The notes below the pieces were generated by a model. The model was not told the origin of the DNA and ran no database searches. It saw only the letters and a list, made by a program, of their open reading frames with translations. The position numbers and the translations under genes are program-made. From Nostoc sp. TCL26-01 (GTDB lineage: Bacteria; Cyanobacteriota; Cyanobacteriia; Cyanobacteriales; Nostocaceae), in contig NZ_CP040297.1 in NCBI RefSeq assembly GCF_013393945.1, forward strand, positions 5,886,809-5,918,808: DNA of 32,000 nt, in the 5' to 3' direction. Position 1 is the stretch's first letter, and each line of letters opens with the position of its first letter. Of the stretch, positions 14,706 to 22,167 are shown piece by piece.

Positions 14706-15527
14706 TTAGCGAATTTCTGCTATCTTTCTAAGTTTTTGATAGGTTTCTCTTCCAAAACTTTTAATTTTATATTCTCCAGATTTAGTTGATTTGTCTAGAT
14801 TTTTCCAAGTTAAACCTTGGTTAGATTTTAGCCAATACTTAACAGCTTCTAATGCAGCCGAAATTTGCTTAGAATACATTCCAGCATCTTTTAATTTTTC
14901 TTCTATTTCCTCATGAGTTGCTGTTAATAAATTTATTTTTGGTGGTAAAGGGGGATCAATTTTTTGAATAAGTATTTCCAACTTAGATAATAATTGATTT
15001 AATTGGTTTTCAATAGTTATGATTTTTTCATCAAAATTAAATTTTTCTTTTGTCTGACTAGTAGCAGATACTAGTTGGTTTAATTTGGTATAAATTGGGG
15101 TTATTTTTTGATCAATTAATTTACCAATATCTGTATGTTGGGTTTCATCTATTCCAAAATGACTGTCGCTACTCAGCAACTGCTGCATTTCTTCTTTAGC
15201 AGCAGCAGCTTGCTCGTTTGTCATATCAAATACCCAAACCCAGAGTTTCTCAATATCAAGTTCTTTAGCAATTAAACACCAATCAGCACCGTAGACAAGC
15301 TCATATTCTTCTTCTTCAGTGTATGCTTCAGTACGGCGTACAATGAGAGGAATTAAATTACTCTTATGTTGATTTAGAGAATCTTCTATTATCTGACGAC
15401 TTTCTAACGAAATATTTTGTTGTTCAGAATCAGGTATGGCAATTTGAAAAGTATAAACCTGACCATGACTAATTGGTTCAATACCTAAATTTGCTCGAAT
15501 ACGAGAGCGGCGTTCTGAACTATCCAT
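14706..15527 (-). CDS. ParB/Srx-like N-terminal domain protein with degenerate arginine box, central coiled coil and C-terminal ComEA-like helix-hairpin-helix
   Basis: aa 40-100, SLESRQIIEDSLNQHKSNLIPLIVRRTE..YELVYGADWCLIAKELDIEKLWVWVF, aligns by eye to ParB box I/II (L..SI...G...P..VR...Y.IIAGERRxRAAK..G....V) with GERR replaced by GADW. aa about 195-273, INLLTATHEEIEEKL.DAG...KQISAALEAVKYW...GLTWKNLD...KIKSFGRETYQKL, resembles the ComEA HhH_3 pattern INtAt.eeL..lpGIG...A..I..yR...G.F.s.edL..v.GiG.kt.ekl. The ATG overlaps the upstream stop by 8 nt (ATGGATAG). Confidence 0.6.
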   Translation of the reverse strand: MDSSERRSRIRANLGIEPISHGQVYTFQIAIPDSEQQNISLESRQIIEDSLNQHKSNLIPLIVRRTEAYTEEEEYELVYGADWCLIAKELDIEKLWVWVFDMTNEQAAAAKEEMQQLLSSDSHFGIDETQHTDIGKLIDQKITPIYTKLNQLVSATSQTKEKFNFDEKIITIENQLNQLLSKLEILIQKIDPPLPPKINLLTATHEEIEEKLKDAGMYSKQISAALEAVKYWLKSNQGLTWKNLDKSTKSGEYKIKSFGRETYQKLRKIAEIR

Positions 15528-17031
15528 TATTTTTTAAATCTCCATTTGTAATTTGAATTAAATGATTAGCTAAATTTATATACCGTTCTAAAACTTTTTG
15601 TGCAGCTTCTTTATCTTGAGATGTTAACCTATCGTCAAATTCACCTTGATACAGTGGATATCCTTTATCTTGACAAACAGAAACAATATTCAGACGCGGA
15701 ATCCAAGTAGTTTCTGGAAAAAGCTCCACTTTGTTCATTCCACCGCTCTTTTCTAAGATATCAAAAAGTCTTACAACCATAGACTTGTTATAACTGGAAG
15801 ATTTTTGATCATACATACTAACAGCTATCCCTAAAATAGGTAAAGGTTCATCTGTTAACTGCTCTACCTCATTTGTTCTATCCAATACATATTCCAAAGC
15901 TCGAATTGCATACGCTGATAACTGAGTAGGAATCAGGATAGCTGATGATGCCATTAACGATATACTGTTAACTTTACCAAAAGAGGGAGGTGGATCGATA
16001 AGTACAAAATCATAATCATGTTTTTTCAGTTTTTTTGCTAATAAACGATCACTATCTACTGTCTGGTTAAGAGTAGTTTCCATTCGACTCAAGCGAATAT
16101 GTGATGGAACTAAGTCTAATTGAACATCTCCCCAACTTGTTGTAACTATTGTGTCTTCTAACTTAGTTCTAGGTTCAGTCAGTAGATGGGTAATATCTTT
16201 TTTTCCTTTCTGCTCAATGTCATCCAATGGATCTATTCCTAGTCCCATTGTCAAGTTAGCTTGAGCATCAATATCAATTAGCAAGACACGCTTACCTAGC
16301 TTGTTTAAAGCAGCAGCAAGATTTATAGTAGTAGTTGTTTTTCCTACGCCTCCTTTGTTATTAAATACTGTAATAATCATCGATTTTTTGTCCTTCTTAA
16401 TATTTGAAAGTTCAACTTTTTCTTCTGTAGTCTGCTGATTTGGTGCAGAATTTGCTTTAGTTTTGTTAAATAAACCCAGCATACCTTCTTGTTTTAATGC
16501 TTGCGAAATTGAATTTAAAAACTGTAACCGAATATTTTGTTGAGTTTTATACACAATAGATGTAAAGTTTAAATAAGTTTTTTTAGATAAAACTTTATGA
16601 AACAGGCTGTATTTATCAATAAGAGTTGGTTGTGAATACTCTGCTATCGTTGTAATTTTTTCTTCACAATTATAAAGTATACGAAAGTTATAACCATTGG
16701 TTAATAGACCAAGAACAGATCCTGTACTCCTCATATAATTATTAATCTGCCAAACACTGTGAGCAATGTTCTTACTAGGTGCTTTTACTTCAATAATTAA
16801 ATAAGCAGGTATGACTAACTTTGAGTCTGGTTGCCCTACTAAAAAATCAAGTTTGGATTGTAAAACTACTACTTGAGATTGCCAGTCAGCACTAGTATAT
16901 CCAAGAATACGCAAGAGAGGAATTACCACTTTTTGCTCAACATCAGACTCATTACTACTTAATGTAATTGCTCGAAAAATGTTTTGCAGAGTTGAGATGT
17001 AATCAGCATTCATACTACCATAGTAATACAT
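15520..17031 (-). CDS. fusion protein: N-terminal HsdR-N-type PD-(D/E)xK nuclease-like domain + C-terminal ParA/Soj/MinD-family deviant Walker A ATPase
   Basis: aa about 25-120: E32, D62 (KLDFLV), E81-x-K83 (IIEVK), Q95 (WQINNY) and TNGYNF, the layout of type I restriction enzyme R-subunit N-terminal (HSDR_N/HSDR_N_2) domains. aa 218-503: NNKGGVGKTT (K226, K231), LLIDIDAQANLT and FVLIDPPPS, which are ParA Walker A, A' and B. ATG at 17031; an alternative ATG at 17013. Confidence 0.8.
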   Translation of the reverse strand: MYYYGSMNADYISTLQNIFRAITLSSNESDVEQKVVIPLLRILGYTSADWQSQVVVLQSKLDFLVGQPDSKLVIPAYLIIEVKAPSKNIAHSVWQINNYMRSTGSVLGLLTNGYNFRILYNCEEKITTIAEYSQPTLIDKYSLFHKVLSKKTYLNFTSIVYKTQQNIRLQFLNSISQALKQEGMLGLFNKTKANSAPNQQTTEEKVELSNIKKDKKSMIITVFNNKGGVGKTTTTINLAAALNKLGKRVLLIDIDAQANLTMGLGIDPLDDIEQKGKKDITHLLTEPRTKLEDTIVTTSWGDVQLDLVPSHIRLSRMETTLNQTVDSDRLLAKKLKKHDYDFVLIDPPPSFGKVNSISLMASSAILIPTQLSAYAIRALEYVLDRTNEVEQLTDEPLPILGIAVSMYDQKSSSYNKSMVVRLFDILEKSGGMNKVELFPETTWIPRLNIVSVCQDKGYPLYQGEFDDRLTSQDKEAAQKVLERYINLANHLIQITNGDLKNNG

Positions 17032-17042
17032 TTAGTTGTATC

Positions 17043-17073
17043 ATTATATCCCAAAATGTTTACTGTGTAGCAA
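17043..17073 (-). promoter_or_regulatory. putative sigma70-type promoter of the nuclease-ParA/ParB-like cassette (consensus -10 TATAAT, weak -35 TTGCTA at 19-nt spacing)
   Basis: Minus strand reads TTGCTAcacagtaaacattttgggaTATAATgatacaactaaATG. The -10 (17048..17043) lies only 11 nt from the ATG, implying a near-leaderless transcript. Sequence only, no experimental support. Confidence 0.3.
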
Positions 17074-17082
17074 ATTTTGCTT

Positions 17083-17355
17083 TCATTGAAAAAACATTAA
17101 GCTCTCTGGAAAATCGTTAGGTAAGGCGTACATATCAAACATTGTAGTGGCGATCGCTGTTTTGTCTTCCAAGCACTTACGATTTAATTGGGGCTTGATT
17201 TTGGCATAACTGACCACCCCACCCTTACCAGTAGAACTGGTTTTGACAAGAATCGGATTGAGGTAGATATTTTTCTCTAGAAAATACCCGTAAAGCAATT
17301 CTCTAACAAAAGTTTCCTCAGTTTGCCCTTCTACAAAAACATTGACTCGAATCAT
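17083..17355 (-). CDS. DUF4276-family (Toprim-like) protein, apparently 3'-truncated remnant
   Basis: MIRVNVFVEGQTEETFVRELL matches the DUF4276/Toprim N-terminal (V/L)VEGxTEE motif; later GGVVSYAKIKPQL and TTMFDMYALPNDFP. Only 90 aa from ATG 17355, whereas I recall family members being roughly twice that length. This ATG overlaps the upstream TGA (ATGA). The ORF ends exactly at a GC-content breakpoint. Confidence 0.6.
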   Translation of the reverse strand: MIRVNVFVEGQTEETFVRELLYGYFLEKNIYLNPILVKTSSTGKGGVVSYAKIKPQLNRKCLEDKTAIATTMFDMYALPNDFPESLMFFQ

Positions 17356-18440
17356 CGTGCTGGTCTCCCGCCTAGAAGATTCTTCCGCCAAAGCTCACCC
17401 AAGCTATAATCTAATAGCCATGCTGACAACTCATCCTGATTCAGCCTGCGTAGGGAGGATGTCCCTTGATTACGGTCTACAACAATCACATCGTTAGCCA
17501 CAAATTCGTTGAGCAGTTCGACGGACTGAGTAGAAACAATCACTTGTTTAGAGGCAGTACGCATCAGCGCAGCCAGCACTGTAATAGCATAGGGATGAAG
17601 TCCTAGTTCTGGCTCATCAACTAGAATAGTTTCTGGCTGGAGGTCTTCAGGTTGTAGAAAAACCGTTGCTAAACACATAAAACGCAGCGTACCATCCGAA
17701 AGCAAGTGTGCCTTAAACGGAATATCCTGTCCTCGCTCAAACCATTCCAACTCAATCACTTCCTTGTTTTGAGGAACAGGACGCAGATAAAAGTCCCCAA
17801 AGAACGGTGCAACAAGCCGAATGGTTTTGATGATTCTTTGATAGGATGCCGGGTAACTGTCACGCAACAGATAGAGAAAGGATGCAAGGTTGCGGGCATC
17901 AGGACGCAGATAAGCATTGTCATTGATACCGTGCAGTTGTTTTATGTAAGCACTGTCACTCGTATCATGAAAATGATAAACTCGCCATTGCTGCATGGCT
18001 GACAAAACATACTGATTAATTTGGGTTTCTGTGCCAGTGAAAGCTTTTGTCTCAAAATGACCTCTACCTAGTTCATGTTCACCACTCATGTTCCACCAAA
18101 AGGATTCTCTAGCGAACATCAAGCGATTATCTTTGGTTGCTTCCAAGGTGGCGAAGTACCCATTATCACCGAAGTATAGCTGAAACTCTAATTGCTCCGT
18201 TGTTTTCCTGCCAAAATGCAATAAGGCATCAGGACTGCCTTGGCGACTGACAAAAACTTGTAGGTTCTGCTCCAGCAACTGCCCAACCATGCGGAAGAAG
18301 CCGATAAAATTGGATTTTCCTGCCCCATTAGCGCCAATCAAAATATTCAGTCTGGAGAATTCCAAGTCACACGAGGCAATTGACTTGAAGCCTTTTAAGA
18401 CTATTCTCGACAATTGTTTGTTACTGTTCATCCCCGTCAT
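17352..18440 (-). CDS. ABC/SMC-type 'AAA family' ATPase (AAA_21/AAA_15-like, OLD/PARIS AriA-like class)
   Basis: Walker A IGANGAGKSNF, ABC signature-like LSDGTLRFMCL, Walker B ILVDEPELGLHP and H-loop STQS. ATG 18440 lies 8 nt after GGAG; the ORF track opens at TTG 18455. Confidence 0.85.
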   Translation of the reverse strand: MTGMNSNKQLSRIVLKGFKSIASCDLEFSRLNILIGANGAGKSNFIGFFRMVGQLLEQNLQVFVSRQGSPDALLHFGRKTTEQLEFQLYFGDNGYFATLEATKDNRLMFARESFWWNMSGEHELGRGHFETKAFTGTETQINQYVLSAMQQWRVYHFHDTSDSAYIKQLHGINDNAYLRPDARNLASFLYLLRDSYPASYQRIIKTIRLVAPFFGDFYLRPVPQNKEVIELEWFERGQDIPFKAHLLSDGTLRFMCLATVFLQPEDLQPETILVDEPELGLHPYAITVLAALMRTASKQVIVSTQSVELLNEFVANDVIVVDRNQGTSSLRRLNQDELSAWLLDYSLGELWRKNLLGGRPAR

Positions 18441-18585
18441 AGAACAGTCTCCCAATAAACAGGATTTTTAGCTGCTAGTTTCATTTTATTTTGTATATGA
18501 GTATATTTAATTTTGTTCAGCCATTTAACGCAGACAAGTTGGTAATTAGATCACAATAGATATGTAGCCTGTTGTTTATCCAACC

Positions 18586-20270: not shown

Positions 20271-20549
20271 ATGACAATGACCTTTGATGTAGCTTCAGCT
20301 AATGCCAACTCTAATCAAAACGGAGCTACCAATTTAGAAACAGCTATCTTAACAGCTATTACCGAAGCACGTAACACTTGTGAACAAACAGGTGATGGTT
20401 CGGCTAATTGTGCTGTAGCCTGGGATATCGTTGAAGAATTACAAGCAGAAAAATCTCACCAACTACAAGCCAAAAAACATAAAAATTCTCTAGAAAACTT
20501 CTGTGACCGACATCCAGAAGCGCTAGAATGTCTGATCTACGACGTTTAA
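20271..20549 (+). CDS. cp12: CP12 (Calvin-cycle GAPDH/PRK regulatory protein)
   Basis: Core AWDIVEELQAEKSH, N-terminal Cys pair CEQTGDGSANC and C-terminal Cys pair CDRHPEALEC followed by IYDV. ATG 20271; the ORF track opens at GTG 20259. Confidence 0.85.
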   Translation: MTMTFDVASANANSNQNGATNLETAILTAITEARNTCEQTGDGSANCAVAWDIVEELQAEKSHQLQAKKHKNSLENFCDRHPEALECLIYDV

Positions 20550-21364
20550 GATTGAGCAAAATTAGCGATCGCTGATTGGGTGATTTGTTGAATTGCTGTT
20601 AAATCTGGTGGTGGTATTTCATTTTGGGTTCCTAACCACAACAGATATTCAATATTTCCCGCCGGGCCTGTAATGGGTGACCAAGTTAAACCCTGGTATT
20701 TCCAGCCCAATGCTTCAGCTACTTGCAAAACCTGAAAAATAGCATCAGCTTGGTCGTCAGGATTACGTACAACCCCTTTTTTACCCACACGGGCTTTTCC
20801 CACCTCAAACTGTGGCTTGACTAGCAACACCGCCTCACGGGGCAATTGAGTCAGTCGCCAGACAGCCGGGAGAATCTTCGTTAAGGAAATAAACGATACA
20901 TCCACCACCGCTAAATCCGGAAGAGGATCGTCCTCACCGTATAAATCCTCAGCTTGGAGTTGCCGTAAATTGGTACGTTCTCGCAACTTCACCTGGGGAT
21001 TATTTCGTAAACCCCAATCGGTTTGTCCATAACCGACATCAACGCCATAAACCAGTTTAGCGCCGGCTTGCAGCAAACAATCAGTAAAGCCGCCTGTAGA
21101 AATCCCACCATCTAAACAAACCCGGTCAGTTACAGGAATAGCGAATAATTCCAAAGCTTTGGCGAGTTTCTCACCACCACGGGAAACAAACCGCGATCGC
21201 TCTTTAATCTTAATCTCAGCCGCCGCATCAACTTCTGTCCCCGGCTTATCAATCACCTGTTGATTTACCATCACTTCCCCCGCCTGAATTAACCTCTGTG
21301 CCAAGGTGCGAGAATTACATAAATCCAACTCTACTAATAATGTATCGAGTCGTTGCTTAACCAA
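20546..21364 (-). CDS. tlyA: TlyA-family rRNA (cytidine-2'-O)-methyltransferase (S4 + FtsJ domains)
   Basis: N-terminal S4 RLDTLLVELDLCNSRTLAQRLIQAGEVMVNQQ, FVSRGGEKL, SAM motif CLDGGISTGGFTDCLL and VDVSFISL. TTG start. Confidence 0.85.
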   Translation of the reverse strand: MVKQRLDTLLVELDLCNSRTLAQRLIQAGEVMVNQQVIDKPGTEVDAAAEIKIKERSRFVSRGGEKLAKALELFAIPVTDRVCLDGGISTGGFTDCLLQAGAKLVYGVDVGYGQTDWGLRNNPQVKLRERTNLRQLQAEDLYGEDDPLPDLAVVDVSFISLTKILPAVWRLTQLPREAVLLVKPQFEVGKARVGKKGVVRNPDDQADAIFQVLQVAEALGWKYQGLTWSPITGPAGNIEYLLWLGTQNEIPPPDLTAIQQITQSAIANFAQS

Positions 21365-21489: not shown

Positions 21490-22167
21490 ATGACTCAAAC
21501 ACAAGGCGAACTAAAGCTACTTACTTTCGATGAATTTATCGCATGGTATCCAGAAAACTCAGAAGTGCGTTACGAATTACATGATGGGGTGATTGTTGAG
21601 ATGCCTAAGCCCAAAGGGGAGCATTCTAATTTGGCTGGTTTTTTGATTGAAGAATTACTCATCGCCATTAGAGAGATGGGTAAGCGTGGTATCTGGACTA
21701 TACCTAAAGAGTCTATTATTAAACCATACCGTGAGAGGTCAGGGTACGAACCGGACATTATTGTTTTAAATCAAGAAACTATTAATACTGAGACACGCTG
21801 GAAAAAAGAATCAGTTATCCATAATGCTAGTTCGGTCAAACTAATAGTTGAAGTAGTTTCAACCAACTGGCAAGATGATTACTACGATAAGCTGCGTGAC
21901 TATGAAGCTATGGGTATACCTGAATATTGGATTGTGGAGGACACTGCGTTGGACGGGTTTCCCGGCTTGAAGCAAGTGTCCGTTGATTATGCAGCCTTGG
22001 GTGGACGTGTATTTATTGGTAGTCCCAAAGTTCCCACTATTTTCGTCTGTGAATTGATTGATGGTGAATATCAAATGACACCCTTTAGAGAAACAAACCT
22101 AATAGTGTCTCCTACTTTTCCACAGTTGAATCTAACCGTACAACAAATTCTTGACTCGGTAATTTAA
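21490..22167 (+). CDS. Uma2-family (DUF820) restriction-endonuclease-like protein
   Basis: LTFDEFIAWYPE...YELHDGVIVEMP.P.GEHS, EPDIIVLN, VKLIVEVVS and EYWIV are typical Uma2 motifs. Confidence 0.8.
   Translation: MTQTQGELKLLTFDEFIAWYPENSEVRYELHDGVIVEMPKPKGEHSNLAGFLIEELLIAIREMGKRGIWTIPKESIIKPYRERSGYEPDIIVLNQETINTETRWKKESVIHNASSVKLIVEVVSTNWQDDYYDKLRDYEAMGIPEYWIVEDTALDGFPGLKQVSVDYAALGGRVFIGSPKVPTIFVCELIDGEYQMTPFRETNLIVSPTFPQLNLTVQQILDSVI

Follow-up and report, generated by a model that had tools for sequence, protein, structure and literature searches.

A Soj-like ParA ATPase with a restriction-type nuclease head and a ParB-like partner: a candidate ATP-gated nuclease module of cyanobacteria

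ATPases of the ParA/MinD class are understood as positioning switches, which move cargo and carry out no chemistry on DNA. Nucleases of the RecB/HsdR type are recognised by a D...ExK triad together with a QxxxY motif. Here we describe a gene in which the two are joined in one reading frame. It lies in a stretch of 32,000 nucleotides (nt) from the cyanobacterium Nostoc sp. TCL26-01 (contig NZ_CP040297.1, positions 5,886,809 to 5,918,808 of the forward strand; this whole stretch is called the window below), where a gene fusing an HsdR-type nuclease head to a Soj-like ParA ATPase overlaps a downstream gene for a ParB-like partner. This two-gene module has been found so far in cyanobacteria, on chromosomes. 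The combination of domains is known already from automatic annotation, which lists PF13588 with PF13614 and, at JGI, the name 'BcsQ/predicted type IV restriction endonuclease'; what appears to be new is the two-gene system with its stripped-down ParB-like partner. A literature search returned no description of the fusion, of the partner or of tll1395, the family member in Thermosynechococcus vestitus BP-1, with an earlier mention elsewhere being possible, and MacCready et al. 2020 (PMC7182216) do not mention the fusion. As we found no paper on it, a widespread ParA/ParB-like pair with a built-in nuclease effector appears to be undescribed.

Several described systems resemble the module in part. 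As in type Ib ParABS systems (Soj/ParA with Spo0J/ParB), the ATPase has a deviant Walker A motif with the signature lysine, its closest structures are the Soj proteins of Helicobacter pylori and Thermus thermophilus, and its gene shares an operon with that of a ParB-fold protein, the N-terminus of which is a basic peptide. Unlike these systems, the fusion has an extra N-terminal nuclease head and stalk of ~215 amino acids (aa); the partner is without the GERR and ENLQR motifs and the helix-turn-helix (HTH), and has a helix-hairpin-helix (HhH), HeH or Rho_N module instead; and we found neither parS-like repeats around the operon nor any occurrence on plasmids. The ParB-like protein of the archaeal pNOB8 ParA-AspA-ParB system also has no classical centromere-binding HTH, and the N-terminal domain of the partner matches pNOB8 ParB-N (5k5d, Foldseek E 7.5e-5). 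In contrast to pNOB8, no gene for an AspA-like adaptor is present here, the pNOB8 ParA is without a nuclease head, and the module is chromosomal and cyanobacterial rather than borne on an archaeal plasmid.

The head itself is like that of the type I restriction subunit HsdR of EcoR124I, with which it shares the PD-(D/E)xK fold, the Pfam family HSDR_N_2, Foldseek matches to HsdR structures and the tethering of a nuclease to a nucleoside triphosphatase (NTPase). The spacing of 4 between Q and Y in the QxxxY motif matches that of Q179 and Y183 in EcoR124I, both of which are required for efficient cleavage (PMC2475608). Unlike HsdR, the NTPase is a dimerisation switch of the ParA type, there is no superfamily 2 helicase/translocase, the ParA-type ATPase being the sole other domain, and no HsdM or HsdS genes lie nearby. 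With the ABC-ATPase nucleases of the OLD/Gabija type and the Avs-like STAND nucleases the module shares a concept, the control of a DNA nuclease by an NTP switch, and the same HSDR_N_2 head is joined to a NACHT NTPase in protein P0303. It differs from those immune modules in that its ATPase is of the SIMIBI ParA/MinD kind, PADLOC gives no significant membership, and the module is neither mobile nor accompanied by recurrent defence neighbours.

The nuclease head and the ParA ATPase

The features of the two genes, in the numbering of the window, are as follows.

15520..17031, minus strand: fusion gene (nuclease head, helix, linker and ParA) from the list of open reading frames (ORFs); 503 aa if read from the first ATG and 497 aa if read from M7 (17013)
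16588..17007, minus strand: HsdR-N/RecB-type PD-(D/E)xK nuclease domain, ~residues 9–148 (Pfam, AlphaFold2 (AF2), Foldseek, conservation)
16948–16950, 16846–16848 and 16789–16791, minus strand: codons of the catalytic residues E28, D62 and E81
16783–16785, 16747–16749 and 16735–16737, minus strand: codons of the catalytic residues K83, Q95 and Y99
16489..16584, minus strand: long alpha-helix after the nuclease core, ~residues 150–181 (AF2 helix 144–175 in model numbering, predicted local distance difference test score (pLDDT) 91–96)
16381..16467, minus strand: disordered K/E-rich linker, ~residues 189–217 (pLDDT <50, low conservation, many gaps), bearing AAGGA at 16391–16395
16378–16380, minus strand: internal ATG (M218), the first residue of the ParA domain
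15523..16380, minus strand: Soj-like ParA ATPase, residues 218–503 (AAA_31, structure matches, conservation)
16336–16356, minus strand: Walker A motif KGGVGKT of the ATPase, with Walker A' at D253/D255 and Walker B at D346
14706..15527, minus strand: gene of the 273-aa partner, which has 8 nt in common with the fusion gene; Arg-rich N-terminal peptide (1–16), ParB/Srx-fold domain without CTP motifs (~17–124), variable coiled coil, HhH-like C-terminal domain (~201–273)

An earlier note on this DNA, made from the letters alone and giving no strand for the gene, had claimed an HsdR-N-type PD-(D/E)xK domain at the N-terminus, and both family and fold agree. Pfam HSDR_N_2 (PF13588) matches residues 28–119 at 26.9 bits, above its curated cut-off of 25 (E 5e-6), and is precomputed on roughly 110 of 120 listed homologues by hand count. 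Comparison of folds was needed because the head, searched by sequence, had no match among the chains of the PDB even at E 10. The AF2 model of residues 7–217 has a mean pLDDT of 83.5, exceeds 90 in the core and shows an alpha/beta core, for which the top PDB matches in Foldseek are an HsdR fragment (3h1t), a putative restriction endonuclease (9y1l), the BpuSI nuclease domain (3s1s), Cas4 and EcoR124I HsdR.

The motifs KLD62FLV, IIE81VK83, WQ95INNY99 and TNGYNF are present in the head, and their conservation was counted in an alignment of 120 homologues of 56–100% identity. D62, E81, K83, W94, Q95, Y99, G108 and N112 are found in all 120, and T111 and G113 in 119. The note would have been refuted by a non-nuclease fold or by variable catalytic residues; neither was found, and D62, E81 and K83 are kept in every homologue, as is Q95. 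The choice of E32 as the first acid fared less well: an acid is present there, but E28 is the better conserved of the two (117/120 compared with 97/120). In a second, more distant group of homologues (clade II, below), D and ExK are kept in 120 of 120 proteins and QxxxY, by a loose pattern, in 65 of 120; the triad is retained at 25–43% identity in clade II and in tll1395. The head thus has a PD-(D/E)xK fold of the HsdR-N/RecB type, and its catalytic residues are complete and do not vary. Because D62, E81, K83, Q95 and Y99 do not vary among the 120 homologues and the triad persists into clade II, the pattern of conservation argues that catalysis, and not DNA binding alone, is under selection.

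The long helix that follows the core is possibly a stalk or a dimerisation element in the model; weak Foldseek matches of this region to the head-plus-stalk proteins SAS-6 and XRCC4 are a hint only. Elsewhere the head occurs on proteins of HsdR length, as found in a profile search of representative proteins. The P0303 protein mentioned above (510 aa) has it in combination with a NACHT/NB-ARC STAND NTPase, which shows the head to be a portable effector that is joined to different NTPase switches.

For residues 218–503 the claim of a complete deviant-Walker-A ParA stands. Pfam AAA_31/CbiA matches residues 219–410 with E 5e-46, and all the motifs that had been quoted are present: NNKGGVGKTT (K226/K231), LLIDIDAQ (D253/D255) and FVLIDPPP (D346). 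K226-GGVG-K231-T, D253/D255 and D346 are each at least 99% conserved, and most columns of the ATPase reach at least 90%. The closest solved structures are HpSoj of H. pylori (6iub, E 1.4e-25) and TtSoj of T. thermophilus (1wcv, E 3.9e-24); the P1-type ParA 3ez9 is far weaker (E 1.5e-6), and the match to SopA reaches 45 of the 725 bits required. An identity as a type Ia ParA (P1 ParA/F SopA) was ruled out, the N-terminus being a nuclease fold and the SopA and P1 matches far weaker than those to Soj. This alters one point of the earlier note, in which the nuclease stood in place of the usual HTH. ParAs of the Soj type have no N-terminal HTH, and because the ATPase is closest to Soj, the head is an addition and not a replacement. 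From the homology with Soj, the ATPase would be expected to form an ATP-sandwich dimer on DNA, which it would bind non-specifically.

The partner gene and the distribution of the module

The fusion protein had at first been treated as standing alone, whereas its gene and that of a partner form a conserved module. A scan with the head alignment and one strict peptide pattern, in which each GTDB species was represented by a single genome, returned 62 loci, a lower bound because only that single pattern was used. The partner gene lies directly downstream of the fusion in 54 of them, overlapping it or a few nt (up to ~190 nt) away. Across the 62 loci the fusion and the partner are the only genes that recur, and no hsdM or hsdS is linked; in the neighbourhood within the window the sole methyltransferase gene encodes an FtsJ-type ribosomal RNA methyltransferase (20546–21364).

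The first ~120 residues of the partner are conserved, and ParB_N is matched in 29 of 37 members of the partner family (best E 3e-6). A sequence search of the partner against the PDB gave noise only. Its AF2 model has a pLDDT of 79, with both terminal domains above 90, and the top Foldseek matches are Noc, ParB from three species, pNOB8 ParB-N, KorB, PadC and sulfiredoxin, those to Noc, ParB and KorB having a probability of 1.0. At the position of GERR the partner reads G-A-D-W-C-L-V-A, and at that of ENLQR it reads EEMQQ, as read by eye against the motifs of Bacillus subtilis Spo0J; G80, D82 and W83 are invariant in the family at the former GERR site. In our reading, the partner has lost the motifs GxxRxxA (GERR) and ENxxR, through which cytidine triphosphate (CTP) is bound. 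A domain search of the family members gave no HTH match. The basic N-terminal peptide SERRxRI, in which R6 is nearly invariant and I10 and L14 are conserved, resembles the ATPase-stimulating peptides of ParA partners and may act as one. The C-termini are exchanged between family members: some have a family-specific HhH-like domain of ~60 aa ('F-G-x-x-T-Y-x-K-L'), others Rho_N/SAP/HeH or a ComEA-type HHH_3. Modules of all these kinds bind nucleic acid non-specifically. A search for parS-like sites around the operon gave no meaningful inverted or direct repeats, with two-copy matches at chance level only.

Confident relatives make up 61 of the 62 loci, and 60 of these are on contigs labelled as cyanobacteria or as uncultured, several of them only as 'uncultured bacterium'. 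They span Nostoc, Oscillatoriales, Leptolyngbyales, Gloeomargaritales and Gloeobacteraceae, and identity drops roughly with taxonomic distance. One contig carries a non-cyanobacterial label, a Candidatus Obscuribacterales metagenome-assembled genome (MAG) with 44% identity (L041), and one protein match is labelled Actinomycetota; both labels come from MAG bins. The remaining locus, L062 on a Verrucomicrobia MAG, is a weak match of 34% identity, and a fusion ORF could not be found there.

A profile of the head, searched against 1.84 billion representative proteins, gave 15 clusters at E <=1e-30 and, beneath them, many proteins of 434–490 aa that combine HSDR_N_2 with AAA_31 at 25–33% identity to the query. 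These constitute clade II, which is widespread in Synechocystis, Planktothrix, Trichodesmium, Pseudanabaena and Chlorogloeopsis. A ParB_N-plus-HhH partner is the next gene in 5 of 6 clade II loci examined, P0269 being without a partner directly downstream. In Chlorogloeopsis the clade II pair occupies the same syntenic slot as the clade I pairs of other Nostocales, with a divergent plain ParA of ~300 aa upstream and glycosyltransferases downstream, so that one and the same ancestral locus is, in effect, filled by either clade. In the model strain T. vestitus BP-1, tll1395 and an overlapping 262-aa gene form a clade-I-like member.

Searches by tblastn of 72,556 plasmids gave no match to the head or the partner, and those of 50,697 phage genomes none to the head; IMG/VR returned a single weak match, of 25% identity. 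Housekeeping genes flank the module in complete genomes, namely leuA (Thermosynechococcus), the rpsJ-tuf-fus-rpsG-rpsL cluster (Synechocystis PCC 7338) and coaX (Pseudanabaena). The module is inherited vertically, on chromosomes.

Integrity of the reading frame and the internal start

Could the fusion be an artefact of assembly or annotation, or a recent accident of one lineage in which a frameshift has joined two genes without functional meaning? A conserved Met with a ribosome-binding-site-like motif stands exactly at the domain boundary and, taken alone, could suggest two genes. The ORF is unbroken, however, in ~53 of the 62 independent loci and continuous in more than 100 protein clusters, the linker differs in length among the 120 aligned homologues and keeps the reading frame in all of them, and clade II has the same architecture. 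On these grounds an artefactual fusion was ruled out and has next to no probability; the gene is a single one, as the earlier note had it. The exceptions are mostly contig ends, together with three decayed copies. In L047 (7968–9477) the ParA domain ends after the Walker A region (234 aa) and the partner gene is directly next, in L027 (7971–8696) the fusion gene is shortened to 241 aa and has no partner downstream, and in L051 (7977–9400) it is in two pieces of 283 and 196 aa. In Synechocystis PCC 7339, too, the homologue is broken up.

The true start is probably M7 (17013), because 86 of the 120 homologues and the 497-aa NCBI model of the identical (100%) Nostoc sp. TCL26-01 protein, named 'AAA family ATPase' and encoded on a contig of 6.77 Mb, begin there. 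None of the curated NCBIfam models reaches its cut-off, whether for the fusion, for its partner or for the protein of clade II. A perfect TATAAT box, spotted by eye, lies on the minus strand 13 nt 5′ of the first ATG (17031), within 17032–17060. Transcription may therefore start at or slightly before M1, which would give M7 a very short leader. A scan for promoters and terminators gave counts equal to those expected from shuffled sequence.

It had also been suggested that the internal ATG at 16380, preceded by AAGGA at 16395–16391, could yield a stand-alone ParA. Both elements are present as described, and comparison across loci lends the idea strong support. M218 is found in 116 of 120 clade I homologues, and an equivalent Met ('MK[TVI]IAVYHNKGG') in 116 of 120 clade II proteins. 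When strict Shine-Dalgarno (SD)-like motifs (GGAG, GAGG or AGGA, 5–16 nt upstream of an ATG) were scored in the 53 intact clade I loci, 50 had one before M218, compared with 5.3% of in-frame positions and 3.7% of other internal ATGs. The motif persists in 37 of 40 distinct local amino-acid contexts within the poorly conserved linker. At codon −5 the G-ending synonymous codon for K, E or Q is used in 40 of 47 cases, against 28% in the same genes (binomial p ~3e-16, a value that overstates the significance because the loci are phylogenetically related). Judged from motif and codon choice, the nucleotides themselves are constrained here, as they would be by an internal ribosome-binding site, and the core of clade I probably makes a 286-aa ParA isoform that has no head.

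Mechanism, role and neighbouring genes

The reading that we prefer, with a probability of roughly 0.45, is that the fusion is an ATP-gated nuclease which acts on DNA under the control of the ParB-like partner, with a role on the cell's own DNA. An apparently active HsdR/RecB-type PD-(D/E)xK head would be tethered through the long helix and the flexible linker to a Soj-like ParA, while the partner, a ParB fold without CTP motifs or a site-specific HTH, would bind DNA non-specifically through its HhH or HeH module. ATP would drive formation of the ParA sandwich dimer on DNA and so pair two nuclease heads, and cutting or nicking would be licensed only in the ATP- and DNA-bound state. The DNA-bound partner would then trigger ATP hydrolysis, resetting or localising the enzyme. 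Initiation at M218 would supply head-less ParA, and mixed dimers could tune the share of two-headed complexes. We propose this model because the catalytic residues are kept across the phylum, the ATPase is of a kind that dimerises on DNA, and the partner looks like an activator but not like a centromere clamp. As to the role, we lean towards work on the host's own chromosomes (maintenance, resolution or segregation of a multicopy nucleoid) rather than classical immunity, because the module lies on chromosomes among housekeeping genes, is inherited vertically and is very strongly conserved.

Several points weigh against this reading. We found no biochemical or genetic account of any family member, tll1395 included, in the literature, and the Foldseek matches of the head, at a probability of 0.98–1.0, have modest E-values (1.5e-3 to 7e-3) and template-modelling scores of ~0.4. 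The spacing of the SD-like motif is long, with GGA at −13 and ~10–11 nt before the ATG; in clade II the motif is inconsistent, and Gloeomargarita has neither the motif nor a Met at this site. Heads of the HSDR_N_2 type are typical of restriction effectors, and one relative is a fusion with a NACHT NTPase. The module is also dispensable, being fragmented in Synechocystis PCC 7339 and in the three scanned loci L027, L047 and L051; its distribution may be patchy, and such a pattern would also suit an accessory or defence role.

Such a role against foreign DNA, in which the ParA switch and the ParB-like sensor would license a restriction-type nuclease to attack phage or plasmid DNA, is the first alternative to be considered, and we regard it as rather unlikely. 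It can be likened to immune modules that combine an NTPase with a nuclease and to type IV restriction enzymes that combine a ParB fold with a nuclease; ParB-fold domains do occur in enzymes of the GmrSD type. HSDR_N_2 corresponds to COG2810, 'predicted type IV restriction endonuclease', and proteins as long as HsdR, as well as a NACHT NTPase, carry this head. The decay of the gene in some strains and the shuffling of the partner's C-terminal domain would also suit defence, as would the surroundings of the operon in the window, which abuts a HEC-01 pair and has a Uma2 nuclease nearby, and the AAA_15/AAA_21 gene beside one relative. Yet no defence gene recurs beside the module in the 62 loci, the adjacent HEC-01B gene is truncated and the adjacency looks incidental, and the complete genomes show housekeeping contexts. 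Matches in PADLOC v2 are weak and partial: the best for the fusion is PDC-M28B, at 35.5 bits over residues 169–255 only (the Walker A region), followed by mad2 and mad8 with E ~4e-3, and the partner has none. The lack of matches to the head in plasmids and phages and to the partner in plasmids, with one weak 25% match in viral contigs, speaks in the same direction, as do the very strong conservation of the ATPase and an identity that falls roughly with taxonomy.

Alternatively, the pair might serve positioning or segregation, with a nuclease-fold head that would bind DNA, or a particular structure in it, without cutting and would stand in for the non-specific DNA-binding surface of Soj. The pairing of a Soj-like ATPase with a ParB-fold partner that bears an N-terminal basic peptide would suit this, and there are cases in which a PD-(D/E)xK fold has come to serve for binding. 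The Arg with which Soj binds DNA non-specifically also appears to be replaced (IPRLNIV here, against what we take to be IPRNIRL in Soj, only loosely aligned). Folds that are reused in this way normally lose their catalytic residues, however, and hardly any change is seen in E28, D62, E81, K83, Q95 and Y99 between Nostoc and the Gloeobacteraceae and on into clade II. A head that only binds is improbable because the catalytic set does not vary; moreover, there are no centromere-like repeats near the operon, and the partner is without the HTH and the CTP-clamp motifs that make ParB a cargo marker.

If the fusion is an ATP-gated nuclease with a regulating partner, no earlier ParA/MinD ATPase would have had a catalytic DNA effector built into it, and an apparently active restriction-type nuclease on a conserved cyanobacterial ParA would extend the range of this class of ATPase. 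A ParB-fold partner without CTP binding or site-specific recognition adds to the significance. Quite possibly, though at somewhat less than even odds, the module represents an undescribed class of machine, present in many cyanobacteria: a nuclease ParA for which ATP-dependent dimerisation on the nucleoid would be the gate, with a ParB-fold partner that resets it without CTP and an isoform without a head, made from the conserved internal start, that titrates it. It would process the cell's own multicopy chromosomes (copy resolution, segregation or turnover) or serve ParA-based immunity. To our knowledge, many polyploid cyanobacteria are without a canonical ParABS system, and the module is a concrete candidate for how they manage many chromosome copies. 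If its role is defence, it would be a new immune architecture. The conservation of the internal ribosome-binding site makes the scheme of two isoforms directly testable.

Other genes near the module are described here in their own right. In the window a HEC-01 candidate defence pair lies directly upstream of the fusion gene (17083–18455, minus strand). Its AAA_21 ATPase (367 aa) matches HEC-01A with E 4e-151, and its DUF4276/HEC-01B ORF (102 aa) covers profile positions 1–85 of 168 and is apparently truncated ~50 bp before the start of the fusion. A functional link was judged incidental because HEC-01B is truncated and the pair is beside the module in no other locus. A putative restriction endonuclease of the Uma2 family (PF05685, E 4e-36) is encoded at 21490–22167 on the plus strand, ~4.5 kb from the module.

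In ~20 loci of several orders, a second, plain ParA of 294–301 aa, Soj-like and ~30% identical to the ATPase of the fusion, is encoded divergently just upstream of it. These genes are placed as follows.

L013–L030, L040, L043, L044 and L052: plain ParA (for example L014, 6833–7717, minus strand)
L070, 6573–7478: plain ParA

The gene also stands beside the clade II fusion in Chlorogloeopsis and is absent from the window; its product may be a third component of the system. Convergent to the partner gene in L013 (10326–16075, minus strand) and in 8–10 other Nostocales loci is an operon whose 858-aa protein unites a 3′–5′ exonuclease (RNase D-like), PDDEXK_1 and an FtsK/SpoIIIE translocase, an unusual combination; a ~700-aa AAA_16 ATPase and a 283-aa protein without a family follow. 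Just upstream of the fusion in 11 Nostoc loci (for example L001, 7498–7869) is a gene for a small zinc-ribbon membrane protein of ~123 aa, and the equivalent position in Thermosynechococcus is taken by a Cys-rich membrane protein of 164 aa (L063, 5488–5982).

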